IMG/VR virus record: IMGVR_UViG_2718217867_000004
Coordinates: 1 to 40,589 of that record
Strand: one strand, 5' to 3'
DNA length: 40,589 bases
DNA from: a virus
Lineage: Duplodnaviria > Heunggongvirae > Uroviricota > Caudoviricetes
The notes under the pieces were generated by a model that worked only from the letters and a program-made list of their open reading frames with translations, searched no databases and had not been told where the DNA came from. Shown here piece by piece: positions 23,862 to 40,589 of this stretch. The stretch's first letter is position 1. Each line of letters begins with the position of its first letter. Position numbers and translations under genes: made by a program.

Positions 23862-23885
23862 CAAAAAACCCGCTCAGAGGCGGGT
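23862..23885 (-). terminator. Rho-independent terminator downstream of the CPBP gene
   Basis: Minus-strand hairpin CCCGCCTCTGAGCGGG followed by T6. Confidence 0.6.
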
Positions 23886-24025
23886 TCAGGCTATGCAGTG
23901 AAATAACCACTCTTAAAAGCATACATGATTTTTTACGTACGTAAATACTTTGCCGTGCATATTTCTCATGCAAATGTCACATCCTGCTATTTTTCAGTGT
24001 TATAAATTTAAGGCCATAGAAAAAA

Positions 24026-24850: not shown

Positions 24851-24994
24851 TCCTTTTATTTAATGATGAAGATTGATTATCAATATTTTCAATTCACCTG
24901 GCAACATTTTGTTTACTTTCCATAAAATTCACGACCACAAAATAAACACATTGATTATAAACATAGGAAACATAACCATAGTCACTATATATCC

Positions 24995-25369: not shown

Positions 25370-25727
25370 TACATCCTCTTATTACGAATATATTCACACC
25401 CAGTCGCCCACCGCAAACAGGCAGACCACGCACAATATTGATTTCATCAAACTGCTCGTCGTCTATGAGTAGTCCGGCATGCGTCAGCGCATCCAGTGGT
25501 GCTTTCAGGATATTGTCCAGGTCACGACGGCGCTTATCCGGTGGCTCTGCAATAATCTTTATCGCCAGCCTTCCGGACAGGTTTAATTTCAACCGCTGCT
25601 GGCAAACAATTAGCGCCACATCACGGCGATAACGCTTTCCGGCTTCTGAGATGAAATACGTATTGCCATGACGTCGCCAGTAGGTATTCACCGTCGGCGG
25701 GTAAGGCAAAACAAACTCTATACGCAT
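25356..25727 (-). CDS. rusA: Holliday junction resolvase RusA
   Basis: 123 aa; [20 protein letters not shown] motif matches the RusA active-site region. Confidence 0.9.
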
Positions 25728-25739
25728 CAGTAACCTCTT

Positions 25740-26789: not shown

Positions 26790-26790
26790 G

Positions 26791-27063
26791 TTACCTCCAG
26801 ATCCGTTGCTGGAATGTGCGGGACGGACGCGGTGGGCGTTCGGAGTAAGGAAGCCTGACGGAGATTATCCAGTGACGATAATCGAGGCTGAGGGCTTTCT
26901 TAATCTCGTATCCGTGTCTGCGGTAGCACTGAATTAGCCATTCAGCTTGTTCTTCAGTACATGGGGGATGCTGGTACCAATCAGATTTAAATGCGCGAGA
27001 GCGCCGCCCGTGCCTGCTGGCAAGGTCGGTATCAGAATTGTGATGTTTGGTATTGTGCGCCAT
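26791..27063 (-). CDS. Hypothetical nin-region protein
   Basis: Start placed at the first ATG (MAHNTKHH); the track's longer ORF needs a TTG start. Confidence 0.45.
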   Translation of the reverse strand: MAHNTKHHNSDTDLASRHGRRSRAFKSDWYQHPPCTEEQAEWLIQCYRRHGYEIKKALSLDYRHWIISVRLPYSERPPRPSRTFQQRIWR

Positions 27064-27249
27064 CTGTTTTCTCTGCAGGCGCAGCAGGTGCCAGTTGTTC
27101 AGGCTGGCGTGCGGCAATATTGTCTCTGATTTCTGTTGTCGTCAACCGCTTCTGCGCTTACTCACTTGATGAGTGAGGCGATTAACTTTACTATTTACTT
27201 AACAGGTTTTTCCTGTACCACAATTCCCCAATACAGGAGGCCATCATGA

Positions 27250-27582
27250 GTGACGACAAAAAAATTGAGTTCAGCACCAGCTGATGTGTTGAATGCTTTA
27301 CTCCATCGCCATCAGAATATGCAACATCTTGCAACACAGGAAAGCGTTGATAACTTACGTCGCGAGATTGATAGTCGATTTAATGCTTCACAAGAAAACG
27401 TTGATAATCTGCGTCGGGAAGTCGATAGTCGCTTTAACTCTTTGCAAAATCAGTTAATGTCGGTTGATAAGCGTCTGGATAAACTGGAAACCAAGTTTGA
27501 CCGACTCCAGTGGTTTATCGTTGCCGCTGCTCTGGCACTCATCTTTAAAGATTACATCCTCAGGTTTATGGGTGCTTTATAA
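27250..27582 (+). CDS. Coiled-coil protein with C-terminal transmembrane helix (membrane-anchored)
   Basis: 110 aa; internal repeat (SVDNLRREIDSRFNASQ / NVDNLRREVDSRFNSLQ), C-terminal hydrophobic helix; GTG start 10 nt after an AGGAGG SD, with an ATG four bases upstream in another frame; convergent with hok. Confidence 0.55.
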   Translation: MTTKKLSSAPADVLNALLHRHQNMQHLATQESVDNLRREIDSRFNASQENVDNLRREVDSRFNSLQNQLMSVDKRLDKLETKFDRLQWFIVAAALALIFKDYILRFMGAL

Positions 27583-27585
27583 AAC

Positions 27586-27609
27586 CATAAAAAACCCGCC
27601 GAAGCGGGT
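27586..27609. terminator. Bidirectional terminator between the coiled-coil gene and hok
   Basis: Hairpin CCCGCCGAAGCGGG flanked by an A-run upstream and TT downstream on the plus strand; strong T-run on the minus strand. Confidence 0.6.
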
Positions 27610-27678
27610 TAAGTGCGGGTGCGTTGAGGATGCCTGACACATCAGAGGTGGCGAGGGATTTCTCCCCCGCCTGGTCTC

Positions 27679-27834
27679 TTACTCCTCAGGTTCGTAAGCT
27701 GTGAAGACAGCGACCTCCGTCTGGCCGGTTCGGATTCGTACCTCGCAGAGGTCTTTCCTCGTTACCAGTGCCGTCACTATGACGGTTAAACAGATGACGA
27801 TCAGGGCGATTAACATCGCCTTTTGCTGCTTCAT
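27679..27834 (-). CDS. hokD: Hok/Gef family type I toxin (HokD/RelF-like)
   Basis: 51 aa MKQQKAMLIALIVICLTVIVTALVTRKDLCEVRIRTGQTEVAVFTAYEPEE: single TM helix plus the conserved Hok motif; matches the HokD sequence as I recall it. Confidence 0.9.
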   Translation of the reverse strand: MKQQKAMLIALIVICLTVIVTALVTRKDLCEVRIRTGQTEVAVFTAYEPEE

Positions 27835-27892
27835 AGCCTGCTTCTCCTTGCCTTTCGGCACGTAAGAGGCTAATCTTCAGTTGTCGAGACAT
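27686..27892 (-). CDS. mok-like overlapping reading frame (modulator of killing)
   Basis: 68-codon ORF starting upstream of hok and overlapping it in another frame, as in hok/mok/sok loci. Confidence 0.45.
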   Translation of the reverse strand: MSRQLKISLLRAERQGEAGYEAAKGDVNRPDRHLFNRHSDGTGNEERPLRGTNPNRPDGGRCLHSLRT

Positions 27893-28264
27893 AAGACTGG
27901 CCTCACTTCGATTTATAGTCGGGTGGGGCTTTTCTCTATCTGCCGTTGGTGTTCATGCCCGAGGCAGATAGCCTCAAGCACCCGCAGCAATTCTACTTAA
28001 CTCCCATCACCTCGCCAATATGAAATCAATCAGAAAGGTGATCCATGAGAACAATAACAAGACAATAAATTGCCATTACAGCCACAATAGCCAGCGCGCA
28101 TTTCAGAACCAGCACGATAACCTCCCACATTTAGCGTGCACGTGCATGATAAATATGTGTCCGTGTTATCACAGCAGCAATAGAAGATAAGATTTCGTTA
28201 TGTCGATATTTAACTCTGTGCGTTAAGCGCCCTGCTTATGTACACAAGGCGCGTTCTTAATGCC

Positions 28265-28348
28265 TTACCCCCAGCGGCAAATCGAATACACCACCAGCGC
28301 CACCGCCATCGCAATTCCTGCCGTTGCAAATGCTTCAGGCCAGCTCAT
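28265..28348 (-). CDS. Small hydrophobic peptide (27 aa), hypothetical
   Basis: ATG overlapping the DUF551 stop (ATGA) with a GGAGGTGA SD; peptide MSWPEAFATAGIAMAVALVVYSICRWG is one TM helix; below the ORF-track cutoff. Confidence 0.35.
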   Translation of the reverse strand: MSWPEAFATAGIAMAVALVVYSICRWG

Positions 28349-28725
28349 TGACTCACCTCCTGCGGCGGTTCCGGTAGCTGCATCCAGTGAGTTGCTTGCT
28401 CAATACCATTACCCGGCTTAATCGTTGCATCTCCGCGCCGAAAGGTGCTTCCGGTATAGCGTGCGGAGCATATTAGCGGTTCAACCAGAGAGCTATCGAA
28501 ATTCACTGAAATAAGCACGTTCTCGCCCTTTTCAGGCATTCGCGCACTACAGCTTATCCAACCATCCGGAGTTACCGGATAGTTGCGCATTGCGATCTTA
28601 AATACCTCATAGAAGCAACCTTTCAGATTATTGAACTGACGCCCGTTCAGAGGGCCATGTTCTGTCAATATGTTGTGTAATTTCCATGCCGCGTCGTTAA
28701 CTTCGTTGGATGACATGGGAGGCAA
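28345..28725 (-). CDS. DUF551-like phage protein
   Basis: 126 aa ORF in the nin region; family assigned from memory of the sequence type. Confidence 0.7.
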   Translation of the reverse strand: MPPMSSNEVNDAAWKLHNILTEHGPLNGRQFNNLKGCFYEVFKIAMRNYPVTPDGWISCSARMPEKGENVLISVNFDSSLVEPLICSARYTGSTFRRGDATIKPGNGIEQATHWMQLPEPPQEVSQ

Positions 28726-28746
28726 CTTGCAAGTTTGGCTTACAGG

Positions 28747-28869
28747 TTATGCTTCCAGCGAGGCTAACGCTATTTCATAAGCTCGGCGCTCAATATTGTC
28801 TCTCACGTCCAGGCTGCCTATGCGCTCTTTGATTTCTTTAATCATTTCTTTGTCGGTAAAAGTGCTCAT
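28747..28869 (-). CDS. Small hypothetical protein (40 aa)
   Basis: MSTFTDKEMIKEIKERIGSLDVRDNIERRAYEIALASLEA with an AGGAG SD 7 nt upstream; below the track cutoff. Confidence 0.4.
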   Translation of the reverse strand: MSTFTDKEMIKEIKERIGSLDVRDNIERRAYEIALASLEA

Positions 28870-28870
28870 A

Positions 28871-29470
28871 TCAATCTCCTTTGGTACCAATGTTTACAGC
28901 CTGGCAAGCCTCTTTGAGTACCCAATCAACAGCGTCTTTCCATGCTCCGGTTTCGACTGGCGGATTTTCACGCTTAACCTGTTCATAGAAGCGCACTGCT
29001 TTAACCAGTCCTTTCGGTACTACTGGCGATGGCTGTTTGGCTTCCAAATCAGCAATTCTGTCAACCACGGCATCGACGGCATCTGAAAAGCCGAACCAGT
29101 TACTCCACTCCGGCCTGTTACCGGTTGCTGCAAAGTACATATCATCTAAAGCAGACTCAGCATGGTCACGCTCATTGATGAGTTGTTCTTCGCTTTTCTC
29201 CAGTTCTGCTATGCGCTTGTTTTGGGTTTCCCGTTCATCCAGCAACTCCTGCGCTACTTCTGGGTTGAAAGCTGCGATATAACGAGCGTTGTTCTCTGCG
29301 TTTTTCTGTTCGTCGAATCCAGGCCAGTCGACAATATCTCCGTGATGATTATCTCCTGGTGTGTGCACGGCGTACGTGCCGTGTTTGCCCGGCGAAATAA
29401 ATGCGCCCCATTCGCCCTGTGTTGCCTGTTTTGCTATCTCACGCAGTGCCTGATAGTTAATTTCTCTCAC
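28871..29470 (-). CDS. Ead/Ea22-like protein
   Basis: 199 aa; N-terminus (INYQALREIAKQATQGEWGAF) typical of the Ead/Ea22 family; GTG start overlapping the upstream stop. Confidence 0.75.
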   Translation of the reverse strand: MREINYQALREIAKQATQGEWGAFISPGKHGTYAVHTPGDNHHGDIVDWPGFDEQKNAENNARYIAAFNPEVAQELLDERETQNKRIAELEKSEEQLINERDHAESALDDMYFAATGNRPEWSNWFGFSDAVDAVVDRIADLEAKQPSPVVPKGLVKAVRFYEQVKRENPPVETGAWKDAVDWVLKEACQAVNIGTKGD

Positions 29471-29687
29471 TTCGAACCTCTCTGTTTACTGATAAGCTCC
29501 AGATCCTCCTGGCAACTGGTACAAGTCCGGCCCCCCTTAACGGCCAGTCGCCGCCGTTTATCTATCGGCTCGCCACACTCACAACAATGAGTGGAGGATA
29601 CGGAACGAAAATTTGTCTGGTATTTTGCAGGGCACTATTGCGCTGAAGTTCTTCGATCTCTGATGCCTGATCGGCAATATCAGCCAT
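29467..29687 (-). pseudogene. TraR/DksA-family C4 zinc-finger gene, frameshifted
   Basis: N-terminal frame MADIADQASEIEELQRNSALQNTRQ... stops after 41 codons; the -1 frame encodes the zinc finger ...HCCECGEPIDKRRRLAVKGGRTCTSCQEDLELISKQRGSK up to a stop overlapping the Ea22 start; frames meet near a T4 run at about 29606-29613. Confidence 0.6.
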
Positions 29688-29862
29688 TTTGTTCTTCCTC
29701 TTCGTCTTTTATTTCGTAATATGAGTAATTGCAGTAGTTAAAGAAAATTTCTTTTGCTTCGTCATTTATTTCATCAGGTGTCGCATCATCGTCCACTTCG
29801 AATACATCCTCAAAATTTCCACCAGCTATTCCCGTTTCAATAATTATTTTGAACTTTCGCAT
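29680..29862 (-). CDS. Small acidic hypothetical protein (60 aa)
   Basis: ATG with an AAGGA SD; AT-rich; stop overlaps the start of the TraR-like gene. Confidence 0.4.
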   Translation of the reverse strand: MRKFKIIIETGIAGGNFEDVFEVDDDATPDEINDEAKEIFFNYCNYSYYEIKDEEEEQNG

Positions 29863-29957
29863 ATTGCTACCGTCCTTTCGGGCAGCCTCCTGATGTTCTG
29901 AGGGTGCAGAAATCCCTCCGGTTAAGGATTAAATTAAATTTGCTGTGCTAAATTTAA

Positions 29958-30413
29958 TTATTCAGTTTTTATTCCCGTTCTCAAAACAGCCTCTGCCATT
30001 CTGATATCCGGATTTTCTGAAATCATCTTTTCTGGCGAATCGCAGTCACCACCACATTCAGTTATGCGTTCATGACCCAAACGAATTGTGGTTTTATGCG
30101 CATTAATCATTTGTGTAAGCGCGTCTGTCAATTCTGCAATGCGATTTTTTGCTGCATCCAGCTCGTCCAGCAGTGACAGTACGTCAGGATCGCTAACATC
30201 AACGACGGTTACACGCGATTTCAGGTAATGCTCATCCGCAAAAGTTCGACCAAACTTTAAATATCCATCATCCCCCTCGCCTGTGCAGGCATACACAATA
30301 TGCGTTCCGGAAGATATGCGCTGCATCGACATTTCCTCGCCACAAACAGAGCATTCAGGTACTGGCTTAGGTGAATAACGTTCCCGTAGCGCCTGATAAT
30401 CAGTCTTGCTCAC
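29958..30413 (-). CDS. Zinc-ribbon-containing hypothetical protein
   Basis: GTG start with a perfect AGGAGG SD 6 nt upstream, overlapping the DUF4406 gene end; N-terminal CSVCGEEM...YACTGEG and C-terminal ECGGDC cysteine clusters. Confidence 0.5.
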   Translation of the reverse strand: MSKTDYQALRERYSPKPVPECSVCGEEMSMQRISSGTHIVYACTGEGDDGYLKFGRTFADEHYLKSRVTVVDVSDPDVLSLLDELDAAKNRIAELTDALTQMINAHKTTIRLGHERITECGGDCDSPEKMISENPDIRMAEAVLRTGIKTE

Positions 30414-30705
30414 TGGCTGCCTCCTGAAAAATAACCGCATGTCCCAGTTTCTCCGCCAGCGCCAGTTCTGCCTTAGCGCCTGCCGACCGCTGCCAGCCTT
30501 TCAGCATGTAAATCGCATCCACGCAACGAATCATTGCCATACAGATATCCATGTAATGCGGCTGTGTCAGCCCGTCCGGAAGCACTGCCGGATTCAGGAC
30601 GGTATGCCCTTCCCGTTTCAGTTCCTCTTCCGCCTTGTGAAATGCCTCACGGTTGAAATTTTCATACCCCGTCATTGGACCGGCGATAGAAACCCTCACT
30701 CTCAC
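30400..30705 (-). CDS. DUF4406-like protein (nucleoside 2-deoxyribosyltransferase-like fold)
   Basis: 101 aa starting MRVRVSIAGPMTGYENFNREAF, the signature N-terminus of this family. Confidence 0.75.
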   Translation of the reverse strand: MRVRVSIAGPMTGYENFNREAFHKAEEELKREGHTVLNPAVLPDGLTQPHYMDICMAMIRCVDAIYMLKGWQRSAGAKAELALAEKLGHAVIFQEAASEQD

Positions 30706-31019
30706 TCCTGAACCCTCCTGTCGAAATAAACATAGTTATTCACCGTGCGCAGCGGCATTTCGAATTTTTCCGCTATCTCGCGACGTGAAATGCCCTGCTC
30801 ATGTAGCTGTCGTATCACCTCAACGCTGCTCCGGGGCATTTTTACCGACTGGTGAAAATCACCCCGCAACATCAGACTGATACCCAGTTCCCGCGCTTTT
30901 GTTCTTACTGCCGCCTCCGTACGCCCCGTCAGCTTCCCGATGTCTTTCACCCGCATGGTTCCCGCACACTGCCGGAGTATCAGGGTTTCAGCCCTGCACC
31001 ACGTCTTCCGGTTGCCCAC
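30702..31019 (-). CDS. Putative HTH DNA-binding protein (NinH-like C-terminus)
   Basis: Two HTH-like segments (DIGKLTGRTEAAVRTKARELGI; ISRREIAEKFEMPLRTVNNYV); start uncertain (GTG at 31019, GTG at 31106 or ATG at 30956). Confidence 0.45.
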   Translation of the reverse strand: MGNRKTWCRAETLILRQCAGTMRVKDIGKLTGRTEAAVRTKARELGISLMLRGDFHQSVKMPRSSVEVIRQLHEQGISRREIAEKFEMPLRTVNNYVYFDRRVQE

Positions 31020-31021
31020 TG

Positions 31022-31768
31022 CTATTGTTCTCCGGTAGCTGCAATCTTCCGGAGAATATCCCTGTGTTTGTTCAGCTCCCGCAGCGCAGCACAGACACGC
31101 TCCCACTTCCGGATATCACTTTTCACCCTACGCAGCTCGCGGTTTGCCTGTCGCAGCGATGGCAGAACCAGATTATCCACTCGCTTTTCCGTTACCGATG
31201 ACTGCGACTGTACAATGTCCGCCACAGTTTCTGTTTTAATATCTTCCTGTGCTGCAGCTTCCTGTACTGGTAACGCAACACCTGCTGGCTGAGGAAAGGC
31301 TTTACCATTGGTTTCCGCTACCGATTCAACTTTCGGCTCTACTGGTAAATTATCACCCGGTATGCAGTAACGAAATTTACCGTTCTGATTTACGCGAATC
31401 AGGCGTCCTTTGCTGATTGCCATAGCCAGCGTTGAAGCCACTTTGCGTGATGTGGTACCGAACAACGTAGCCAGTTCATCCGCAGTTAGTGGACCACGTT
31501 GTTCAATCGTCGCGGTTAAATCGCACTCCGGTATTTTCGCGACTGTTGCCGTGGTGGTTTCTTCCGGCGGTTCTGCCTGCTCTGGCTGTTCCTGCTGAGC
31601 GTTGTTATCAGCCACACGCCAGGTGTATACGCTTTTATCAACGAAACCAGCCTTTTTCAGCTCCCACAGCTCGTTCAGCACTTCTTCACGACTGATATCA
31701 AGTCGCGCAGCCAGCTCTACCGACGTGGCTTTGCCCATTGCTTTCAGTGCGTCAAAAACGGTTTCCAT
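31022..31768 (-). CDS. Winged-helix-like protein (DUF1627-like), hypothetical
   Basis: Start placed at [13 protein letters not shown] (GGGAGA SD); central Pro/Glu/Gln-rich linker; sits between the DnaC-like gene and the nin region. A 1-nt mismatch between my stop reading and the track coordinates is unresolved. Confidence 0.55.
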
Positions 31769-31790
31769 AAAATTTTTCTCCCGGTAAAAA

Positions 31791-32537
31791 TTACTTCTCT
31801 GTTCCTGGCTGACCGACATTCGAACGCCAGCTTTCCCAGTTAAAATTCACCCAGCGACCACCGTTCATGGTCATGCGGTCCATCACTCGCTCTCCCAGAA
31901 GGGTGCTCATCGCGGTATGGTTCAGGTTCGTCAGCATCCCGACACTGCGCATCGAAGCCGTTCTGCGGTCGACTATCTGGTTCAGAGTGACCTGTTCATT
32001 GCGTGTATCACGCTGCATGCCAATCTCATCCAGAACCAGCAGGTCAACGTTGCACAATCCCTGCAAAAACTTTTCACCCGAGTTTTTGTTGTCGTAGCTG
32101 CCGTGCAACGCCAGCATCACATCAGCCACAGTGACCACAATCACACTCCGCCCCTTCGCCAGAAGATGGTTGCCGATGGCTGCCGCAAGGTGATTTTTTC
32201 CGGTACCCGGCTTACCGCTGAACACGAAATTTGTGCACCTGGTCATAAGTTCGTCCGCGATGGATTTTGCATGACTCAGCGCGTGGCGTTGCCCGTCGTT
32301 CTGCACCCGGTAATTCGCAAACGAACACTTCTGGTGCAACGGCTGGATACCCGAACGGTTCAGAATTTTTTCCGCATGAATCTTGTTATTCAGGCGATTA
32401 ATCTCCTCACTACGTTTTCGCCCTTCAGCAAGCCACCACTCGTACCACTCTTCCCGTGTCCGGTACGGCGCGGTTACATGCTGTGGGGCCAGTCTGCGGA
32501 TACGTTCAAGAACACCGCTTGCCGCAATATTTTTCAT
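31791..32537 (-). CDS. DnaC-like helicase loader (IstB-type AAA+ ATPase)
   Basis: 248 aa; Walker [18 protein letters not shown] and Walker B LLVLDEIG. Confidence 0.9.
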
Positions 32538-32543
32538 GGTCAG

Positions 32544-33350
32544 TTACCCCCTGAAGCCTGGCGGGATCGCACTATCCGGTAACGAGACGGTGTTAACCTG
32601 TCGGAGTAACGTCTCAGGTCGAACACCTTTCGGCGCGAACAAGCCCTGGTATTCATTGGCGATGCTGTGTCGAATCACCTGCTCAGGTGAAAAACCCTGC
32701 TGGCGGAATTTTTCCAGCTCCCGTATCGCCCCGTTAGCGCCCTGCTCCGTTCGAATCGGTTTTCGCAATGCCTGGCGAAATTCAACCCACTCACGCCAAA
32801 GCGAGACAGAAATCCAGTTCGGCAAAGCAATATCCAGAGGGTCAAACTTTTTGACACCTCGATTCCCCCGGGGGGGATTTAGGGGGGGATCTGTTTTTAG
32901 ATCTTTATCTGTATCTTTATTAGTTGCCTTTGTGTTCGCGCCATGTTCAAACACCATTTCAACGTCTGTTTGAACACCTGTTAAATTTCGCTCGTGTTTT
33001 GTTTGAGCATATGATTCCTTTCTGTTTCTCCTGGCCTGAACAGATGCTTTTCCCGCAGCCGATTTTTTTATTGATTTTTCCCTGACTGATGCCAGATCTT
33101 CCTCAATCCGAAGGTGCATCCATTCATCGCCGTTATCGCAAAAAAACTCCCGCAAGGATGGTTCAACATCAGCCCATCGCTCGTTAGTCAGACGGGCAAT
33201 TTTTGCCAGCCTGTTTTTAGGTATTGGCTTTCCTGTTTGCCAGTAATTGAACATCAGTAACAAATACGCACCATGCTCCTCTGCTGACAAATGCATGGTG
33301 TCGGCCAGGTAATCAGCTATGTACAGTTGCATGTATGGTAATGCGGCCAT
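32544..33350 (-). CDS. Replication initiation protein (YdaU-like N-terminus, DnaT-like C-terminal domain)
   Basis: 268 aa; N-terminus MAALPYMQLYIADYLADTMHLSAEEHGAYLLLMFNYWQ, basic linker, C-terminal DnaT-like region; sits upstream of the DnaC-like gene as in the Rac ydaU-ydaV arrangement. Confidence 0.75.
   Translation of the reverse strand: MAALPYMQLYIADYLADTMHLSAEEHGAYLLLMFNYWQTGKPIPKNRLAKIARLTNERWADVEPSLREFFCDNGDEWMHLRIEEDLASVREKSIKKSAAGKASVQARRNRKESYAQTKHERNLTGVQTDVEMVFEHGANTKATNKDTDKDLKTDPPLNPPRGNRGVKKFDPLDIALPNWISVSLWREWVEFRQALRKPIRTEQGANGAIRELEKFRQQGFSPEQVIRHSIANEYQGLFAPKGVRPETLLRQVNTVSLPDSAIPPGFRG
32841..32940. promoter_or_regulatory. Candidate replication origin inside the initiator gene
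   Basis: GTCAAACTTTTTGAC palindrome, CCCCCGGGGGGG and GGGGGGG tracts, two GATCT units (Dam sites) and an A/T-rich stretch, all within the linker-coding region. Confidence 0.4.
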
Positions 33351-33420
33351 AATTGCCTCTTCTGATACCGAATCTCTTAATCACGCACTACCGGAAGCGA
33401 TCCAGTATAAATATTGCCAG

Positions 33421-33845
33421 TCAATGCACCGCCACGGCATTTCCTGCCGGACCACCGCGATTCATCTGGTCGAACAGAACGATCGCTGATGCAACGAACT
33501 CATCGATATCTTTCACCAGCCGATCCCGTCGCTCGACAATCTCCCGGTGATACTCCGAACTGTGACTACGCATTCGGGCCACCAGCGGTGGCGGCATTGC
33601 CTTTTCGATCGCTGGTAACAACGCCTGAATTTTTTAACCGCATCAGGAGTATCTTTCTCCACCCAGCGGAAAATTTTCTGAGTATTGCGAGCCAGGGCTT
33701 CTGGGTGTGAATCGTCGTACAGTTCCGGAAACGTCATACCCAGCTCAAAATAAGCCCGGGTTATTTCAGCCGCCGGAACTTTTTCACCGTCCGGATACGC
33801 CCAGGCATTCATCGCCATGCGGATGTGTTCATGCTTGATTTTCAT
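33421..33845 (-). pseudogene. YdaT-like gene split by a frameshift in an A6 tract
   Basis: N-terminal ORF (33513-33845, MKIKHEHI...) and a +1-frame ORF (33421-33621) overlap; inserting one A in the AAAAAA run at about 33628-33633 joins them into a single ORF of about 140 aa. Confidence 0.55.
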
Positions 33846-34057
33846 GAATCATTCTTTCCTTCGTTCGAGGTGTTATCCTGCTTCTTGTAAAGTTCTGGAT
33901 TGTATTTCAATTCACCGTTAGTAATTTCATCCAGCTCCATTGCGCGAAGTTTGGGAATAACTGCTTTCCACCGCACAACAGCCACATGTGAAATTCCAAG
34001 AGCCTCAGCTACTAGTCGCTTTTTTTTGAAATAGCGCAGAACATCATCTTTGAACAT
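33842..34057 (-). CDS. Cro-like HTH regulator (YdaS/Cro family)
   Basis: 71 aa with HTH KKKRLVAEALGISHVAVVRWK; divergent from cI across an operator-bearing gap; ATGA overlap with the YdaT-like gene. Confidence 0.8.
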   Translation of the reverse strand: MFKDDVLRYFKKKRLVAEALGISHVAVVRWKAVIPKLRAMELDEITNGELKYNPELYKKQDNTSNEGKNDS

Positions 34058-34085
34058 AAAACTCTCCTGTTATTTCGAACAAGAG

Positions 34086-34150
34086 GGTAACAATAGTTAC
34101 ATAATGATGTCAACCATAGTAACATTACTTGGTAGTAACATTGGTTACAT
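34086..34150. promoter_or_regulatory. OR-like operator cluster between cro and cI
   Basis: Three sites with inverted GTAAC/GTTAC half-sites (GGTAACAATAGTTAC, GTAACATTACTTGG, GTAACATTGGTTAC) in the divergent promoter region. Confidence 0.6.
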
Positions 34151-34823
34151 GAAAAACACTATCAGCGAACGTATTCGGAATCGTCGAAAAGACGTTGGAC
34201 TAACTCAACAGCAGGTTGCGAAAGCAATCGGCATATCTCGCGTATCCGTAACAAAATGGGAAAATGGCTCTTCAAAACCTGACGGTGAGAATTTGCATCT
34301 GCTGTCAAAATTGCTTTCCAAATCTCCTGAATGGATTCTTTATGGAAAGGATGGTCACGATAAAACCGACGATCTGCGTCTGAATCAGCACCTTTACATT
34401 AGTGACAACATCGCCCGGTTGCCCGTTTTAACGTGGGAACAGGCTGGTTATTGGGATATGAGTTGCCCAGTAACCGAGATTCCTGGTATTAAGAATTGGG
34501 TTGATGTCATGACAAAAACCGCTGAAAACTCTTTTTTATTGCGCGTTGAGGGAGATGCGATGACGAACTCTAACGGCCTCCCAACCATCCCCGACGGATC
34601 TACCGTGCTGATCACTCCATGCTCAAGTAACATTAGAGAACTGGTGGGAAAAATAATCTTAATCCAATTGGAAGGAACGCCGAACGTAACACTAAAAAAA
34701 GTTGCGATTGACGGACCAAACATCTATCTGCTGTCACTGAATCCGCTTTACAAACCCATTGAACTGAATGGTGGTTACACTATTAAAGGTAAAGTTTCAC
34801 AAATACATCAATATTTAGACTGA
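34149..34823 (+). CDS. cI-like repressor (N-terminal HTH, C-terminal S24 LexA-like peptidase domain)
   Basis: HTH (LTQQQVAKAIGISRVSVTKWENG) and S24 autocleavage domain (VEGDAMT...KGK); start chosen at MKNTIS just after the operators; the track ORF begins at 34050. Confidence 0.85.
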   Translation: MKNTISERIRNRRKDVGLTQQQVAKAIGISRVSVTKWENGSSKPDGENLHLLSKLLSKSPEWILYGKDGHDKTDDLRLNQHLYISDNIARLPVLTWEQAGYWDMSCPVTEIPGIKNWVDVMTKTAENSFLLRVEGDAMTNSNGLPTIPDGSTVLITPCSSNIRELVGKIILIQLEGTPNVTLKKVAIDGPNIYLLSLNPLYKPIELNGGYTIKGKVSQIHQYLD

Positions 34824-34828
34824 GTCAG

Positions 34829-34855
34829 AACCCGCATTCATTGCGGGTTTTTTTG
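34829..34855 (+). terminator. Rho-independent terminator after cI
   Basis: Hairpin CCCGCATTCATTGCGGG followed by T7. Confidence 0.6.
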
Positions 34856-34874
34856 CGGCCCTATATGTACCTTT

Positions 34875-34915
34875 TGCAACATCATGTTGACTTTGCTGGT
34901 AACTCTTGTTACCTT
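34875..34915. promoter_or_regulatory. OL-like operator sites / early promoter region
   Basis: Palindromes CAACATCATGTTG and GGTAACTCTTGTTACC (same GTAAC half-site as OR) upstream of the rightward early operon. Confidence 0.5.
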
Positions 34916-35095
34916 GACAACATACCAACCCACCCCGCCCCACAGAACGCCGGGCAATACTTCGAGTTACCAGGCAGGTGATCAGGGGTCAATGTAGCCA
35001 GCCCGAGGCATTCGAAAGTGACGGCAGGGTTCAACTTTTAACTATGCAGCAGGTTTTTGTTCCGCTACCCCGGCGATAAGGGGAAATGAGGTCAA

Positions 35096-35248
35096 CATGG
35101 AAACTATCGATCTTGGCAACAACGAATCTCTGGTGTGCGGCGTGTTTCCCAACCAGGACGGAACGTTCACGGCGATGACGTATACAAAAAGCAAAACGTT
35201 TAAAACCGAATCTGGCGCGCGTCGTTGGTTGGTAAGACATTCAGGTGA
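35096..35248 (+). CDS. Small protein, YdfA-like (50 aa)
   Basis: METIDLGNNESLVCGVFPNQDGTFTAMTYTKSKTFKTESGARSLVGKTFR with a GAGG SD; position and size match ydfA of the Qin dicB operon; below the track cutoff. Confidence 0.45.
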
Positions 35249-35253
35249 ATAAA

Positions 35254-35400
35254 ATGAACGAAACAGAATTAAAACACGTTATCGCTCTGCTTCTGGAGGA
35301 TGCAAAACGCCTCCAGCAACTGGAACCAAATGCAGGCACTGAAGCCCGCATCTGGCTGGCATTGCACGCTATTGAGTCAGGTCGTGATGATGAAGGTTAA
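35254..35400 (+). CDS. Small protein, YdfB-like (48 aa)
   Basis: MNETELKHVIALLLEDAKRLQQLEPNAGTEARIWLALHAIESGRDDEG with an AGGTGA SD 5 nt upstream. Confidence 0.45.
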   Translation: MNETELKHVIALLLEDAKRLQQLEPNAGTEARIWLALHAIESGRDDEG

Positions 35401-35598
35401 GCATCATCTAAGTTTTTTACATAGCGCCCATTAGATTCGGTAACAAGAACTCCGGGATTTTTCTTAACTTTTGAGGCCACTGATTCAGCAAGGTCAGCAA
35501 CAGATTCTTTGTCTTCATTCTTGCTTGAATATATATATTCGGCATTAGGAAGACGGTAGGTGTTCCCTAAAGAGGTTGTAATCGTTCTGGAGAATCCC

Positions 35599-35760
35599 AT
35601 GAAGCTTATCGTAATCAGCGGAACTGGAATCGCGAAGTTCGATCCTGACTGTAAATTTTGCCATTTTATCCTCCATTTAGGTTCTGGGTTAGAAATGGAG
35701 ACCAATACGGGGCTACGTGTGGTCGTGCGCCGGACACGGATAAGAATCCGGCACTGACAG
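35599..35760 (+). CDS. Small hypothetical protein (53 aa), possible ydfC-position gene
   Basis: ATG with a GGAG SD 6 nt upstream, on the operon strand; an antisense 67-aa ORF (35397-35600) competes for the adjacent AT-rich segment. Confidence 0.3.
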
Positions 35761-36000
35761 TTTACTGAAAGGATATATCCCTGAAAAGTCAGGGCATAAC
35801 ACGAAAGCGTACGGCGAAGGCCTTCACCTATGAGGTTTGTCGTTAAATTACTTCGACCGTGCGCTTCCGGTTGTGGCAATCCGCGAAATGGCGCGGCGGT
35901 AAGTATGGCGGGGTTATTCCTTCCCCCGTTGAGGACACCGGGTTGTCAGGTTGACCATACGCTTAAGTGACAACCTCGCTGCAACGCCCTCTGTTATCAA

Positions 36001-36058
36001 TTTTCTGGTGACGTTTGGCGGTATCAGTTTTACTCCGTGACTGCTCTGCCGCCCTTTT
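36001..36058 (+). ncRNA. dicF: DicF small RNA
   Basis: TTTCTGGTGACGTTTGGCGGTATCAGTTTTACTCCGTGACTGCTCTGCCGCCCTTTTT matches the DicF sequence as I recall it, with its intrinsic terminator; lies upstream of dicB. Confidence 0.85.
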
Positions 36059-36228
36059 TAAAGTGAATTTTGTGATGTGGTGAATGCGGCTAAGCGCACG
36101 CGGAACAGTTAAAACCAAAAACAGTGTTATGGGTGGATTCTCTGTATCCGGCGTTAATTGTTAACTGGTTAACGTCACCTGGAGGCACCAGGCACCGCAT
36201 CACAAAATTCATTGTTGAGGACGCGATA

Positions 36229-36411
36229 ATGGAAACGTTATTACCAAACGTTAATACGTCTGAAGGTTGTTTTGAAATTGGTGTCAGAATCAGTAACCCT
36301 GTATTTACTGAAGATGCCATTAATAAGAGAAAACACGAACGGGAGTTATTAAATAAAATATGCATTGTTTCAATGCTGGCCCGTTTACGCCTGATGCAAA
36401 AAGGACGCTGA
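36229..36411 (+). CDS. dicB: Cell division inhibitor DicB
   Basis: 60 aa METLLPNVNTSEGCFEIGVRISNPVFTEDAINKRKHERELLNKICIVSMLARLRLMQKGR; GAGGA SD; closely matches DicB as I recall it. Confidence 0.85.
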   Translation: METLLPNVNTSEGCFEIGVRISNPVFTEDAINKRKHERELLNKICIVSMLARLRLMQKGR

Positions 36412-36413
36412 CA

Positions 36414-36617
36414 ATGAATACAGCATTTGCACTCGTTCTGACAGTTTTTCTTAATACAGGCGAACCAGTCGATCTTGTTATTGGTATACATGACTCAATG
36501 AAAGAATGCATGGCTGCCGCAGCGGAACAGAAAATTCCCGGCAACTGTTATCCGGTTGATAAAGTTATTCGCATGGACAATAACGAAATCCCGGCAGGAC
36601 TTAAAGCAGCACCGTAA
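36414..36617 (+). CDS. ydfD: YdfD-like small membrane (lysis-associated) protein
   Basis: 67 aa MNTAFALVLTVFLNTGEPVDLVIG... with an N-terminal hydrophobic helix; AAGGA SD; immediately after dicB as in Qin. Confidence 0.75.
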   Translation: MNTAFALVLTVFLNTGEPVDLVIGIHDSMKECMAAAAEQKIPGNCYPVDKVIRMDNNEIPAGLKAAP

Positions 36618-36697
36618 TTAATATCCGGTTTCATTTTTAGATGCCAGCAATGGCAGGGATTTGTTCACCCTTAAATCTGTAATGAGGTTAAAACAAA

Positions 36698-39169
36698 ATG
36701 AGTAAAGTCTTTATTTGCGCCGCCATTCCGGACGAACAGGCAATAAAGGAAGAAGGTGCAGTTGCTGTAGCCACTGCCATTGAAGCCGGTGACGAACGCC
36801 GCGCCCGTGCCAAATTTACCTGGCAATTCCTGGAGCAATATCCGGCTGCTCAGGACTGCGCTTATAAATTTCTTGTCTGCGAGGATAAACCCGGCATGCC
36901 CCGCCCTGCTATCGACTCCTGGGATACCGAATATATGCAGGAAAACCGCTGGGATGAGGAATCCGCTTCCTTTATTCCGGTCGAACCAGAATCCGATCCG
37001 ATGAACGTCAATTTTGACAAGCTGTCCCTTGAAGTACAGAACGCGGTCCTGGTTAAGTTCGGTACATGTGAAAACATCACCGTTGATATGGTGATTAGTG
37101 CTCAGGAATTACTGCAGGAAGACATGGCAACATTCGATGGGCATATCGTTGAGGCATTGATGAAAATGCCTGAAGTTAACGTCATGTATTCAGAGCTTAA
37201 GCTGCTCGCCATCGGGTGGGTTAAACATAAATGTAAGCCGGGTGCAAAATGGCCTGAGATCCAGACAGAATTACGCACCTGGAAAAAACGTCGCGAAGCC
37301 GAACGCAAAGAAACCGGGAAATACATGTCTGTTGTTGATCTTGCCCGCGCCAGAGTCAACCGGCAGAACACTGAAAACTCAGTAGCGAAAATCCCCCCAG
37401 CCACTGCCACCATTCGTCGCGAATACAAGCAGACATGGAAAACACTGGATGATGAACTGGCCTACGCTCTGTGGCCTGATGACATTGATGCCGGAAACAT
37501 TGACGGCAGCATCCATCGCTGGGCAAAAAATGAAGTTATCGACAACGACCGCGAAGACTGGAAGCGTATCTCGGCATCAATGCGCAAACAGCCTGATGCC
37601 CTTCGCTACGACCGCCAGACTATTTTTGGCCTTGTCCGTGAACGTCCGATCGACATTCACAAAGACCCTGTGGCACTGAACAAATACATTACTGAATACC
37701 TGACTACAAAGGGCGTGTTTGAAGATGAAGGAACAAATCAGAGCGCAACTGATACTCTCTCGTCGCCAGTACCAGAAACTGATGCAGTGGAAACGGCAAT
37801 TCCGGACAACGAAAAAACCGAATGCAAAGTGGAAGTCGAACCATCTGTAGAGCGTGAGGGGCCGTTCTACTTCCTCTTCACAGATAAAGATGGCGAAAAA
37901 TATGGTCGTGCAAACAAACTTTCTGGTCTGAATAAGGCGCTGACTGCAGGGGCTACTGAAATCACGAAAGAAGAATATTTTGCCCGCAAAAACGGTACAT
38001 ACTCAGGCTCACAACAAAATACTGGTGCATCTGACACGACCGCACAACCAGAGCCGGTAAAAGTTACCGCTGAAGAAGTAAACAAAATTATGCAGGCAGC
38101 CAATATCAGCCAGCCTGACGCCGATAAGTTGCTTGCTGCCTCTCGCGGAGAATTTGTTGCAGGGATTAGCGACCCGAATGATCCGAAATGGGTGAAGGGG
38201 ATTGAAACCCGCGATTCTGTAAACCAGAACCAGCAAGAATCGGAACAGAACGACCAAAAAGCGGAACAAAACAGCCCAAATGCGTTACAAAACGAGCCAG
38301 AAACGAAACAATCCGAACCAGTAGCGCAACAGGAACCGGAAAAAGTCTGCACCGCCTGCGGTCAGAGCTGTGGCGGCAACTGCCCTGATTGTGGCGCGGT
38401 GATGGGCGACGCAACATACCAGGAAACATTCGATGAAGAGAATCAGGTTGAAGTTCAGGAAAATGATCCGGAGGAAATGGAAGGCGCTGAACATCCACAC
38501 AAGGAGAACCCTGGCGGCAATCAGCATCACGCCAGCGATAATAAAACTGGCGAGGCGACAGATCCCTTAATTGAGGTGAACGGTCATCATAAGCTCACAT
38601 CCACCAGCAGAGCGGGGATTCATCTGATGATCGACCTTGAAACCATGGGAAAAAATCCCGATGCCCCGATTATCTCAATAGGCGCAATATTTTTCGATCC
38701 ACAAACCGGAGATATGGGACCGGAATTTAGCAAGACCATCGATCTGGATACTGCTGGCGGAGTCATTGATCGTGACGTCATTAAATGGTGGCTGAAGCAA
38801 TCACGTGAGGCGCAATCTGCCATTCTGACCGATGAAATTCCGTTAGATGATGCACTACTGCAATTGCGGGAATTTATCGACGAAAACTCCGGTGAATTTT
38901 TTGTTCAGGTCTGGGGAAATGGAGCCAACTTCGACAACGTGATTTTACGCCGTTCATATAAACGGCAGGGTATCCCCTGCCCGTGGCGCTACTACAACGA
39001 TCGCGATGTACGCACAATCATTGAACTGGGAAAATCCATAGACTTCGATGCCAGGACGCCTATTCAATTCGAAGGCATACGCCACAATGCGCTGGATGAT
39101 GCCCGTCACCAGGCGAAATACGTTTCAGCAATCTGGCAAAAACTGATCCCGAATCAGTCTGATTTTTAA
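36698..39169 (+). CDS. Large multidomain protein with C-terminal DEDDh 3'-5' exonuclease domain (YdfE-like)
   Basis: 823 aa; C-terminal IDLETMG (Exo I), WGNGANFD (Exo II), RHNALDDARH (Exo III); central Cys4 cluster CTACGQSCGGNCPDCG; acidic/Gln-rich linkers; position corresponds to ydfE in Qin. Confidence 0.85.
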   Translation: MSKVFICAAIPDEQAIKEEGAVAVATAIEAGDERRARAKFTWQFLEQYPAAQDCAYKFLVCEDKPGMPRPAIDSWDTEYMQENRWDEESASFIPVEPESDPMNVNFDKLSLEVQNAVLVKFGTCENITVDMVISAQELLQEDMATFDGHIVEALMKMPEVNVMYSELKLLAIGWVKHKCKPGAKWPEIQTELRTWKKRREAERKETGKYMSVVDLARARVNRQNTENSVAKIPPATATIRREYKQTWKTLDDELAYALWPDDIDAGNIDGSIHRWAKNEVIDNDREDWKRISASMRKQPDALRYDRQTIFGLVRERPIDIHKDPVALNKYITEYLTTKGVFEDEGTNQSATDTLSSPVPETDAVETAIPDNEKTECKVEVEPSVEREGPFYFLFTDKDGEKYGRANKLSGLNKALTAGATEITKEEYFARKNGTYSGSQQNTGASDTTAQPEPVKVTAEEVNKIMQAANISQPDADKLLAASRGEFVAGISDPNDPKWVKGIETRDSVNQNQQESEQNDQKAEQNSPNALQNEPETKQSEPVAQQEPEKVCTACGQSCGGNCPDCGAVMGDATYQETFDEENQVEVQENDPEEMEGAEHPHKENPGGNQHHASDNKTGEATDPLIEVNGHHKLTSTSRAGIHLMIDLETMGKNPDAPIISIGAIFFDPQTGDMGPEFSKTIDLDTAGGVIDRDVIKWWLKQSREAQSAILTDEIPLDDALLQLREFIDENSGEFFVQVWGNGANFDNVILRRSYKRQGIPCPWRYYNDRDVRTIIELGKSIDFDARTPIQFEGIRHNALDDARHQAKYVSAIWQKLIPNQSDF

Positions 39170-39232
39170 TGTTCAACCCCGGTCGTCGCCCCCAGCTATA
39201 GTGGCGGCGACCATGATTAGCGAACGATACTC

Positions 39233-39481
39233 ATGGCAAGACTTATTCTGCTCACTGAGTGGGCAAAAGAGGAATTCAGCGATCCGGTCCCTACTCCGGG
39301 CACGTTAAGTAAATACGCTAAAGCCGGAATGATATTTCCTCTCCCCAAAAAAGTTGGAAGACACTGGCGAGTGGATCCGCGAGCTCGCTTTGTCGGAATG
39401 GTAAACAAGCCGGAGGTGATCGCCACAGATCACCCTGCTTTAAAGAGGATACTGGAAGATGGCACGCCCGCGAAAATATAA
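39233..39481 (+). CDS. xis: Excisionase (Xis-like DNA-binding protein)
   Basis: 82 aa starting MARLILLTEWAKEEF; immediately upstream of and overlapping the integrase gene. Confidence 0.7.
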   Translation: MARLILLTEWAKEEFSDPVPTPGTLSKYAKAGMIFPLPKKVGRHWRVDPRARFVGMVNKPEVIATDHPALKRILEDGTPAKI

Positions 39482-40589
39482 AACCGCTGTTCCGGGATTA
39501 TCTCCGTATTTTGACAAAAGAAATAACAAAGTTTACTGGCGTTACAGGCATCCCATCACAGGTAAAAATCATGGACTCGGCAGTATTGACCAGAAACTGG
39601 CGGAAACCATTGCAGCAGAAGCGAACAGCCGTCTTGCCAGACAACAAATGGAGCAAATGCTCAGTCTGCAGGAGAAAATTATTAATGATACCGGCGGTTC
39701 ATCAACCGTTTCCATTTTTCTGAATAATTACAGAAAAATTCAACAGGAAAGATATGAAAACGGAGAAATCAAACTCAACACGCTGAAACAGAAAGCGGCC
39801 CCTCTCAGGGTTTTTGATGAACGTTTTGGCACCAGACCGTTAGATGCCATAACCGTAAAGGATGTGGTATCGGTGCTGGAAGAGTACAAGTCCAGAGGAC
39901 ATAACAGAATGGGACAAATTTTCAGGAAGGTACTGATCGATGTTTTCCGGGAGGCTCAGCAAACGGGCGATGTCCCGCCAGGCTTTAACCCTGCAGAATC
40001 GGCAAAAAAACCACAGGTGCGGATATCAAGACAGCGACTGACTTTTGATGAGTGGACGATGATTTATAACGCAGCGGAAAAGGATGGTTACTTTTTACAG
40101 CGCGGTATGCTGCTGGCACTGATGACAGGCCAGCGCCTTTCAGATATTTGCAAAATGCAATTTTCGGATATCCGGGATGGTTATCTTCATGTCGAACAGC
40201 AAAAAACAGGAACCCGGATTGCCATCCCTCTGGCTCTGCGTTGCGATAAATTAAATCTCACCCTGGATGATGTGGTGTCATCCTGTCGCGATTGCGTTCT
40301 TAGTCCGTGGCTATTGCACCATCATCACGCGAAAGGGACAGCTAAGCGCGGCGGGATGGTTAAGCCAGCAACGTTAACCGTTGCATTTAAAAAAGCGCGG
40401 GATTCTGTGGATTACAACTGGCGTGCTAATGGCACCCCACCCTCTTTCCATGAGCAGAGATCTTTATCAGAGCGATTGTTCAGAGAGCAGGGAATTGATA
40501 CCCAAATTTTGCTGGGTCATTCGAATCAAAAAATGACCGATATTTACAACGATGCACGCGGCAAGGAGTGGAAAAAACTGGTCATTTGA
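39459..40589 (+). CDS. int: Tyrosine integrase, lambda Int family
   Basis: 376 aa; C-terminus ...FHEQRSLSERLFREQGIDTQILLGHSNQKMTDIYNDARGKEWKKLVI parallels the lambda Int catalytic region (HELRSLSARLY...LLGHKSDTMASQYRDDRGREWDKIEI); stop is the last codon of the window. Confidence 0.95.
   Translation: MARPRKYKTAVPGLSPYFDKRNNKVYWRYRHPITGKNHGLGSIDQKLAETIAAEANSRLARQQMEQMLSLQEKIINDTGGSSTVSIFLNNYRKIQQERYENGEIKLNTLKQKAAPLRVFDERFGTRPLDAITVKDVVSVLEEYKSRGHNRMGQIFRKVLIDVFREAQQTGDVPPGFNPAESAKKPQVRISRQRLTFDEWTMIYNAAEKDGYFLQRGMLLALMTGQRLSDICKMQFSDIRDGYLHVEQQKTGTRIAIPLALRCDKLNLTLDDVVSSCRDCVLSPWLLHHHHAKGTAKRGGMVKPATLTVAFKKARDSVDYNWRANGTPPSFHEQRSLSERLFREQGIDTQILLGHSNQKMTDIYNDARGKEWKKLVI

Follow-up and report, generated by a model that had tools for sequence, protein, structure and literature searches.

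The RecE protein of the Rac prophage joins a PF06630 N-terminus to a PD-(D/E)XK (PDDEXK) head acting 5'-3', and its gene lies in the order …racC-recE-recT-ralR-rcbA-xisR-intR. A review from 2023 placed the RecE nuclease domain at residues 564-866 and described the N-terminal part as 'of unknown function' (PMC11611040). DexA, a stand-alone protein of 227 aa from the lytic phage T4, is an exonuclease of the DEDDh type, and its classical role is the scavenging of host DNA. DexA and its stand-alone Escherichia coli homologue 'EcD' have both been studied biochemically and were reported to recognise 5-hydroxymethylcytosine (5hmC) DNA (NAR 2025, PMC12153337). Zheng et al. (Genome Res 2025, PMC12315714) described lambdoid phages without an anti-RecBCD function as Chi-rich, proposed that Chi-rich phages without a Rec module make packageable concatemers by RecBCD-Chi recombination, and reported DnaQ-like 3'-5' nucleases in lambdoid Rec modules. 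Table 1 of that article includes a 'Tritos' type with a nuclease and without SAP, single-stranded DNA-binding protein (SSB) or anti-RecBCD function, comprising 4 phages with Chi counts of 21/6 to 7/2. Here we analyzed a 40,589-nt stretch of a tailed-phage genome (IMG/VR record IMGVR_UViG_2718217867_000004, positions 1 to 40,589), referred to as the window, which is a lambdoid prophage adjoining ompW ('PPompW' type). It contains an open reading frame (ORF) for an 823-aa protein at 36698-39169 on the + strand. A first-pass annotation had read this ORF as a YdfE-like protein with a DEDDh exonuclease domain at the position of RecE or lambda Exo and without an annealase partner. Judged from its sequence, the protein is a RecE-family non-catalytic scaffold with a swapped nuclease head and not an unrelated protein at the RecE position.

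The six-frame ORF list confirmed the coordinates exactly, with an ATG at 36698, a stop codon whose last base is counted at 39169 and one unbroken frame between them. The product was 100% identical to a coding sequence that PGAP calls 'exonuclease' in E. coli PapM-36-2, and PHROG 2082 ('exonuclease') covered it end to end (positions 1-823 of 823). An artefactual ORF or a fusion of two genes was considered but rejected, as the frame was single, PGAP agreed with several phage annotations and the PHROG match was full-length. The C-terminal domain matched Pfam family PF16473 (Rv2179c-like 3'-5' exoribonuclease) over residues 642-813, which took in profile positions 2-177 of 177 (E=3.7e-65; 219.4 bits against a cut-off of 27), while RNase_T (PF00929) scored 20.2 bits on the same domain, under its cut-off of 24. 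The catalytic set consisted of D646 and E648 in ExoI (MIDLET), D746 in ExoII (NGANFD) and H796 and D801 in ExoIII (H-x4-D). All five residues were invariant in a four-way alignment with T4 DexA, an EcD-like protein and Sb30 of Salmonella phage ST64B; the counterparts in DexA are D7, E9, the ExoII Asp of an SFD motif, H186 and D191. The sole sequence match in the PDB was 8KEL/8KEN, deposited as 'Exodeoxyribonuclease' (E=9.5e-6), which we identified as T4 DexA by alignment with the T4 dexA product. DexA belongs to the same PF16473 DEDDh subfamily but is only 24% identical and has extra loops that are missing from the window protein. Sb30, a DEDDh exonuclease encoded directly before xis-int, was 56% identical to the C-terminal domain, but it is a stand-alone protein of 189 aa that lacks a RecE-like scaffold. 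Neither Pfam nor the PDB gave a match to the nuclease domain or structure of RecE, DUF3799, YqaJ or lambda Exo. The catalytic head is thus very probably a Mg2+-type DEDDh (DnaQ-fold) 3'-to-5' exonuclease of the DexA/Rv2179c family, and the profile comparison with DEDD families that the first-pass annotation had called for upheld its assignment of the domain to DEDDh and not to PD-(D/E)XK. The 3'-5' polarity was assigned from superfamily membership and from the relatives DexA and EcD; it would be the reverse of the RecE and lambda Exo polarity. Many phages carry this domain family: tblastn found it in 1627 of 50,697 phage records, and an exhaustive HMMER search returned 11,549 representative clusters at E<=1e-3. 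Among the listed representatives with only this domain, most were stand-alone proteins of ~180-250 aa.

Ahead of this head, residues 262-625 aligned to residues 278-591 of Rac RecE (BLASTP, E=3e-62) with 39% identity overall and were almost identical from residue 474 on. The alignment ended at residue 625, which corresponds to RecE residue 591, just before the PD-(D/E)XK domain covered by the crystal structure. At the DNA level, window positions 38122-38571 were 76% identical to Rac recE. The RecE equivalog of NCBIfam, PRK09709, reached 277.8 bits against a cut-off of 1269 and matched residues 218-625 only (profile positions 242-602 of 877), and PF06630, the Exonuc_VIII N-terminal domain, had no match at E<=1 in the window protein. 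Residues 1-256 were 86% identical to the K-12 Qin pseudogene ydfE, in keeping with the YdfE likeness already noted. YdfE is encoded by the same gene, and genes upstream of it are also common to both loci (ydfA-like, dicF, dicB and ydfD), but in K-12 the gene is cut by IS2 and the RecE-like middle, the zinc ribbon and the nuclease have all been lost. Because of this identity and the IS2 truncation, we regard ydfE as the stump of the gene described here. The first-pass annotation had also proposed a long N-terminal region of unknown function. That held for the N-terminal fold, which gave no informative match, but not for residues 262-625, which are homologous to RecE.

The domain layout is given in Table 1. 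The mini-domain at residues 385-437 had columns nearly invariant in 48 homologues; it is absent from Rac RecE and falls in the gapped part of the RecE alignment. Rac RecE shares with the window protein the operon position before xis-int, the Cys4 zinc ribbon and the acidic linker. In the zinc ribbon, which the first-pass annotation had placed within a few nucleotides of the cysteine codons, C551, C554, C562 and C565 were kept in the homologues and in Rac RecE, while C558 was not; the CxxC...CxxC sequence is CTACGQSCGGNCPDCG in the window protein and CNACGQTGGDNCPDCG in RecE. The net charge was -13 across residues 561-600. The N-terminal modules were modelled with AlphaFold2 over residues 1-440, using an alignment of 48 Enterobacterales homologues, at a mean predicted local distance difference test (pLDDT) of 78.5. 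This model replaced one of residues 1-470 built on a 13-sequence alignment of low diversity (pLDDT 57), for which Foldseek against the PDB returned nothing. A Foldseek search of the PDB with the better model found no informative relative, its best E being 1.5. According to precomputed matches, two families, PF27430 and PF27432, have already been defined for the N-terminus in more recent Pfam releases.

Pfam and PHROG scans of representative relatives indicated that the head found in the window is one of several carried by the scaffold. P0123 (805 aa) joined the N-terminus of Rac RecE (PF06630, with first residues as in K-12 RecE) to a DEDDh head with the junction at the same place, and P0126, P0133 and P0136, also with PF06630, were similar. 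The reciprocal arrangement, a YdfE-type N-terminus with a PDDEXK head (DUF3799), was found in P0141 (921 aa) and in a 987-aa protein of locus L023, which lies on a contig of a metagenome-assembled genome (JAGTSE010000010.1, 10001-14013). The L023 gene was 87% identical in DNA to window positions 36641-38191, and a RecT-family gene (PF03837, E=2.7e-44) followed it after 12 bp, with small ORFs and an integrase gene beyond. L023 was among 8 loci obtained by a scan of genome contigs, a number too small for statistics. Three further proteins, P0137, P0145 and P0148 (PHROG 2489), carried a third head, PHROG 7838, behind a YdfE-type N-terminus; the motifs of this head recall Rad52/Sak annealases. For this head PF04098 was the top Pfam match, under threshold (E 0.009 and 0.028), a profile search of the PDB gave no match, and hhalign against an approximate RAD52 sequence gave P=0.014; a Rad52-like annealase is therefore a possible identity, to be taken as a lead only. 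PMC12315714 mentions 'RecE-2' proteins that lack a nuclease fold, and the proteins with the PHROG 7838 head may be the same as these. A homologue search with the P0148 N-terminus found 3 proteins only, while a profile search with alignment A4 succeeded. P0137, P0145, P0148 and ~55 relatives from Enterobacter, Klebsiella, Pantoea and Salmonella (740-790 aa) bear the NCBI name 'exodeoxyribonuclease VIII' with no detectable nuclease domain. P0129 carried a fourth type of head, and P0270 of Enterobacter cloacae (555 aa) had a YdfE-type N-terminus with a ParB-like head containing a GHRRHR motif (…IVEGHRRHRCY…) and a precomputed match to PF17762 (HTH_ParB). Since N-termini and heads are mixed freely, the scaffold would be an adaptor that takes different DNA-processing heads.

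We searched for an annealase at several levels. PHROG scans of 20 early-region ORFs of the window found no RecT/Redbeta, Erf, Sak or Sak4 family and no SSB family; the families recovered from these ORFs were replication, RusA, HNH/NinG-like, Q, Ea22-like and regulator families. When Rac RecT and lambda Bet, Exo and Gam were compared with the window by tblastn, nothing fell below E=0.49. A near-identical complete prophage (attL to attR at ompW) had no annealase and no Gam in its PGAP annotation, and to the left of the part that corresponds to the window it carried only tail-fibre genes, an alpha/beta hydrolase gene and genes for ORF6N proteins up to the ompW' remnant. An orthologue is also present in phage mEp460_ev081, whose complete genome had no annotated annealase and no tblastn match. 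The absence of a Bet/RecT/Erf-like gene, as claimed by the first-pass annotation for the window, was thus borne out there and in the full prophage. We also compared 12 loci with a DEDDh head (the window, mEp460, Evi, 606R7, ST64B, Tritos, PhiR42_1, E. ruysiae, two of E. albertii, a contig of a metagenome-assembled genome and Shigella). The DNA retrieved for these loci gave no match at E<=1e-4 when RecT, Bet, Erf and the possible Rad52-like head were used as queries. As xis starts 63 bp after the exonuclease stop, there is no space for a partner gene downstream; in Rac, recT, ralR and rcbA follow recE, whereas none of them follows the window gene. The head swap coincides with annealase loss, since the PDDEXK locus L023 has RecT while the 12 DEDDh loci lack it. 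The 3'-5' polarity together with the lack of a single-strand annealing protein (SSAP) argues against a classical recombinase made of exonuclease and annealase, and we consider it likely that the protein is not part of a SynExo-type, two-component system (5'-3' exonuclease plus SSAP). Two small early-region ORFs of the window gave weak PHROG matches to families of RecBCD inhibitors: 27250-27582 (+) matched a Gp5.9-like RecBCD inhibitor (E=9e-4), and 28871-29470 (-) matched the PHROG 'host RecBCD nuclease inhibitor' (E=8e-9) inside an Ea22-like protein. If real, these matches complicate the assignment of the prophage to a class without anti-RecBCD function.

The window contained 12 Chi sites against 2.0 +/- 1.4 expected, a count reached by 0 of 100 dinucleotide-preserving shuffles. 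All of them lay between the lysis genes and int, with none in the structural half (1-20.5 kb), and nine were on the - strand, the one that is sense for the terminase and head genes and for packaging. One site fell inside the exonuclease gene (38601-38608, -), and the mEp460 orthologue also holds one (L011 27009). In mEp460 the top strand had 7 sites and the bottom strand 2; P22 and the red region of lambda had zero. The orthologue in phage Tritos is 88.6% identical at the DNA level, and its gene order is the same. Like the Tritos type, the window has a nuclease, and tblastn and PHROG scans found no SAP, Gam or SSB; its 9/3 distribution of Chi per strand agrees with the abundant Chi, mostly on the top strand and towards the right end, that characterises the type. 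The prophage therefore fits the nuclease-only, Chi-rich 'Tritos-type' module of PMC12315714. No RecE-scaffold/DEDDh fusion and no mechanism are described in the accessible text of that article.

Our best overall explanation, to which we give an about even chance, is that the protein is a RecE-scaffold 3'-end trimmer in a phage that relies on host RecBCD-Chi-RecA. Induction or infection would switch on the early operon and with it the enzyme, which, while tethered, would trim DNA 3' ends in the form of single-strand tails or flaps. The ends might thereby become blunt enough for RecBCD loading; alternatively, the enzyme might tidy phage replication or recombination intermediates in some other way. 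The part of the scaffold would be to bring the head to a shared target, and host RecBCD-Chi-RecA would support the recombination-dependent growth of this phage class. A specific role in feeding the RecBCD pathway is less likely than not and is put forward tentatively. The end-blunting step draws on the substrate preference of RecBCD and on the roles of host single-stranded DNA exonucleases.

Several points weigh against this explanation. The end-blunting role is inferred and not demanded by the sequence. The substrate, DNA or RNA and single- or double-stranded, is suggested only by relatives that are 24-38% identical, and PF16473 itself is named for an exoribonuclease. No informative structural relative of the N-terminal fold came out of the Foldseek search of the PDB, which therefore pointed to no target for the scaffold. 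The annealase search consisted of single-sequence tblastn with PHROG and Pfam scans, which might miss an SSAP of a new family. A prophage can be maintained without an intact copy of the gene, because the orthologue in PPompW prophages of Shiga toxin-producing E. coli (STEC) is frameshifted and K-12 ydfE is truncated. Finally, PMC12315714 states that 3'-5' nucleases of the DnaQ type 'curiously, usually inhibit homologous recombination'.

A broader proposal, which we regard as speculative and on balance unlikely, is that the RecE/YdfE N-terminal scaffold is a general delivery module that brings interchangeable end-processing heads to one common target (a DNA end, RecBCD or the replisome), the DEDDh version turning the ends of phage DNA into substrates for RecBCD. 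Observed or suspected heads are PD-(D/E)XK 5'-3' with RecT, DEDDh 3'-5', a possible Rad52-like annealase, the ParB-like head and that of P0129. If this proposal were true, it would give a function to the long-enigmatic N-terminus of RecE and describe a new recombination strategy, in which a recombinase-less phage harnesses the host Chi pathway.

We estimated the ratio of nonsynonymous to synonymous substitution rates (dN/dS, Nei-Gojobori) per module from five full-length phage copies (window, mEp460, Evi, Tritos and PhiR42_1; 85-99% protein identity); the figures are rough, as the sample is small and the gene mosaic. Values were 0.13 for N1 (residues 1-257), 0.15 for N2 (258-345), 0.12 for module D (474-510) and 0.15 for the DEDDh domain (642-823), with the lowest of the protein, 0.05, in the mini-domain (385-437). 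The three linker segments gave 0.75-0.83 (0.76 for residues 346-384) and the zinc-ribbon/acidic stretch (549-625) gave 0.65. Every folded module is thus under purifying selection. In complete E. coli genomes the gene had a match in 4799 of 5426 and at least 80% coverage in 3530 (~65%), at a median of 2 places per genome, and nearly full-length copies occurred in 17 phage records. Inactivated copies circulate beside intact ones. In STEC PPompW prophages (L014 1601-4068; Stx2a phage/PPompW_14040, LC567818) the orthologue is annotated as frameshifted by a 4-bp deletion, and in phage vB_EcoM-606R7 it is split into two coding sequences (L009 3670-4590 and 4746-6113).

Four other functions and one null explanation were weighed and are taken here in order of falling probability. 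The protein could be a prophage defence nuclease of the 'HREX' type that, like EcD, digests the 5hmC DNA of superinfecting T-even phages and spares host DNA, which we consider rather improbable. An EcD-like protein of 193 aa shares 38% identity (E=2e-39) with its C-terminal domain, EcD was reported to cut the T4 genome and to protect against T4 (PMC12153337), and the nearly full-length gene is kept in those 3530 genomes, often in several prophages of one genome. However, W152 and D169 of DexA, two residues reported as essential for recognising 5hmC, correspond to Y766 and K779 here and to W and E in the EcD-like protein, the D169 position being less certain as it adjoins a gap in the alignment. 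D90, the tetramer-forming Asp of DexA that is Ala in EcD, is kept as D718 here, whereas the EcD-like protein has Ala. The DexA-family DEDDh domain is common to both proteins, but the EcD-like genes are short, stand-alone genes (~190 aa) in the early region of P2-like prophages, and the window gene lies in a repressed early operon without a promoter-like site just upstream. PADLOC-DB 2.0 returned only a generic CRISPR-associated DEDDh model (E=2.2e-4, 19.9 bits); with this generic DEDDh match as the only one, membership in a known anti-phage defence system was rejected. The EcD-like gene was located with the published primers of PMC12153337. In E. coli S19-651 (L006 5989-6570) this 193-aa gene has as neighbours an integrase, a helix-turn-helix repressor, a ParE-like gene, a Dam methylase and a replication endonuclease, and the 'bacterial' HREX gene EcD appears to be a prophage gene.

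A role in counter-defence or host takeover, in which the enzyme would destroy free-3'-end DNA that immunity uses or senses (retron msDNA, 3' tails) or would scavenge host DNA, also has a small chance. The gene shares its early operon with the host-takeover genes DicF and dicB, scavenging is the classical role of DexA, and a scaffold that takes many alternative heads is what one would expect for rapidly evolving conflict genes. On the other hand, no match to known anti-defence families was found, a temperate phage has little need for bulk degradation of host DNA, and dN/dS gave no sign of positive selection in the folded domains. More doubtful is an RNA substrate, whether for an exoribonuclease like Rv2179c or for an ISG20/TONDO-like trimmer of RNA 3' ends that acts against RNA phages or in RNA turnover. 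The Pfam family is called '3'-5' exoribonuclease Rv2179c-like', and prophage DEDDh exonucleases with auxiliary domains were reported to defend against MS2 and Qbeta (preprint, PMC13344964). The TONDOs of that preprint, however, were chosen from an ISG20-related clade and are <500 aa, and RNase_T scored under its cut-off here; the only characterised or solved phage relatives that we found, DexA and EcD, are DNA exonucleases; and the scaffold is common to DNA-recombination proteins, namely RecE and the PDDEXK versions with RecT.

A recombination exonuclease that works with an annealase in trans, for instance RecT from a Rac-type prophage in the same host or an SSAP not recognised as such, seems very unlikely to us. 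The scaffold shared with RecE, the presence of several lambdoid prophages in many E. coli genomes (median 2 matching places) and the weak Rad52-like signals in the heads of some sibling proteins would suit it, but a 3'-5' nuclease destroys the 3' tails needed for SSAP loading, and mEp460, a free-living phage with a complete genome, had no SSAP that we could find. A decaying remnant left without present function after the loss of the RecE nuclease and RecT is scarcely credible despite the broken copies in K-12 (ydfE) and STEC PPompW prophages, because the folded modules are under purifying selection (dN/dS 0.05-0.15), all catalytic residues are kept, and the gene is intact in viable phages and thousands of genomes.

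The preferred explanation, a RecE-scaffold 3'-end trimmer, concerns one of the commonest E. coli prophage genes. Names given to it in annotations vary from 'exonuclease' and '3'-5' exonuclease' to the misleading 'exodeoxyribonuclease VIII', which is applied routinely, and annotation pipelines should not transfer the RecE name and polarity to these proteins. The Tritos-type module is already catalogued and DnaQ-like Rec-module nucleases were reported in 2025 (PMC12315714). The literature that we searched (Rv2179c with phage, ydfE and PF16473 among the topics) held no functional study of the intact protein, in line with the first-pass view of it as uncharacterised, no account of the non-catalytic RecE scaffold joined, at the boundary of the RecE domains, to a head of the DexA family, and no description of a correlation between head type and RecT. 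The family amounts to a natural experiment in which the scaffold stays the same and the head is either a 5'-3' nuclease accompanied by RecT or, in a Chi-rich genome, a 3'-5' nuclease that has no annealase. Two questions could be approached through it: the role of the N-terminal two-thirds of RecE and the way in which 'Rec-less', Chi-rich lambdoid phages use RecBCD. The natural head-swapped chimeras could guide the engineering of recombineering tools.

Table 1. Features of the exonuclease gene, its product and the surrounding prophage (nucleotide positions in the window)
Feature	Position	Strand	Basis
Whole gene, RecE/YdfE-family scaffold with predicted DEDDh exonuclease, 823 aa	36698-39169	+	ORF list, PHROG 2082, PGAP
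N1 domain, residues 1-206, small alpha/beta subdomain then helical bundle, YdfE-type N-terminus	36698-37315	+	AlphaFold2, pLDDT ~85-93
N2 helical domain, residues 245-340, homologous to RecE ~278-350	37430-37717	+	BLASTP, partial PRK09709 match, pLDDT 82-88
Disordered linker, residues 344-384	37727-37849	+	pLDDT <50
Conserved mini-domain, residues 385-437, beta-hairpin and helices, GPFYF...GRANKL...EITKEEYFARKNGTY	37850-38008	+	pLDDT 79-89
Module D, residues 474-510, LLAASRGEFVAGISDPNDPKWVKG, almost unchanged in Rac RecE	38117-38227	+	BLASTP, 76% DNA identity
Cys4 zinc ribbon, C551/C554/C562/C565 and C558	38348-38392	+	Cysteine positions, RecE alignment
Acidic linker, residues 566-625, last RecE-homologous stretch, head-swap junction at its end	38393-38572	+	BLASTP, charge
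Predicted DEDDh (DnaQ-fold) 3'-5' exonuclease domain, Rv2179c/DexA family	38621-39136	+	PF16473, PDB 8KEL, DexA alignment
Twelve Chi sites (GCTGGTGG)	20532-38608	9 on -, 3 on +	Site count
cro-like gene, divergent from repressor	33842-34057	-	PGAP
LexA/CI-type prophage repressor, head of operon side	34107-34823	+	PGAP on near-identical record; PHROG 4 'transcriptional repressor'
DicF small RNA, upstream in the same early operon	36003-36054	+	Rfam RF00039, 76.7 bits against gathering score 48
dicB	36229-36411	+	PGAP on near-identical record; PHROG matches
ydfD-like DUF1482 gene, directly upstream of the exonuclease gene	36414-36617	+	PGAP; PHROG matches
Excisionase	39233-39481	+	ORF list, PGAP
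Integrase	39459-40589	+	ORF list, PGAP

The gene order around the exonuclease gene is cro-like (-), LexA/CI-type repressor (+), DUF1391, DicF, dicB, ydfD-like DUF1482, the 823-aa gene, the 63-bp spacer, xis and int. This layout is that of the lambda early-left (PL) operon, mirrored, and is shared with K-12 Qin (dicA-ydfA-ydfB-ydfC-dicF-dicB-ydfD-ydfE). The early operon is Qin-like, with cell-division inhibitors carried together with the exonuclease. The gene is the last of the repressor-proximal early operon and is followed by xis-int, in parallel with recE/recT in Rac, so that the RecE/Exo position given in the first-pass annotation was correct. A scan of 34700-39600 for promoters and terminators found no promoter-like site just upstream of the gene and nothing above chance. 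The PapM-36-2 prophage (NZ_CP050646.1) was 99.6-99.9% identical to the window, except for a 1.1-kb insertion sequence without a counterpart in the window; this remnant ('integrase core domain', L003 32000-33096) lies beside hokD and is absent at window positions 27843-27848.

The composition of the window breaks at ~17000, from a GC content of 0.57-0.64 in the head, tail and baseplate genes (1-17000) to 0.37-0.54 in the lambdoid early/lysis half (17000-40589). The structural genes resemble those of Mu and P2 (sheath, tube, baseplate J/gp47). Given the GC break and the gene types, the prophage is a mosaic that combines a structural module of the contractile-tail type with a regulatory module of the lambdoid type. 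The phage also carries two tRNA genes, tRNA-Gly(UCC) and tRNA-Thr(UGU), at 22034-22187 (-), between the lysis genes and a DNA methyltransferase gene.

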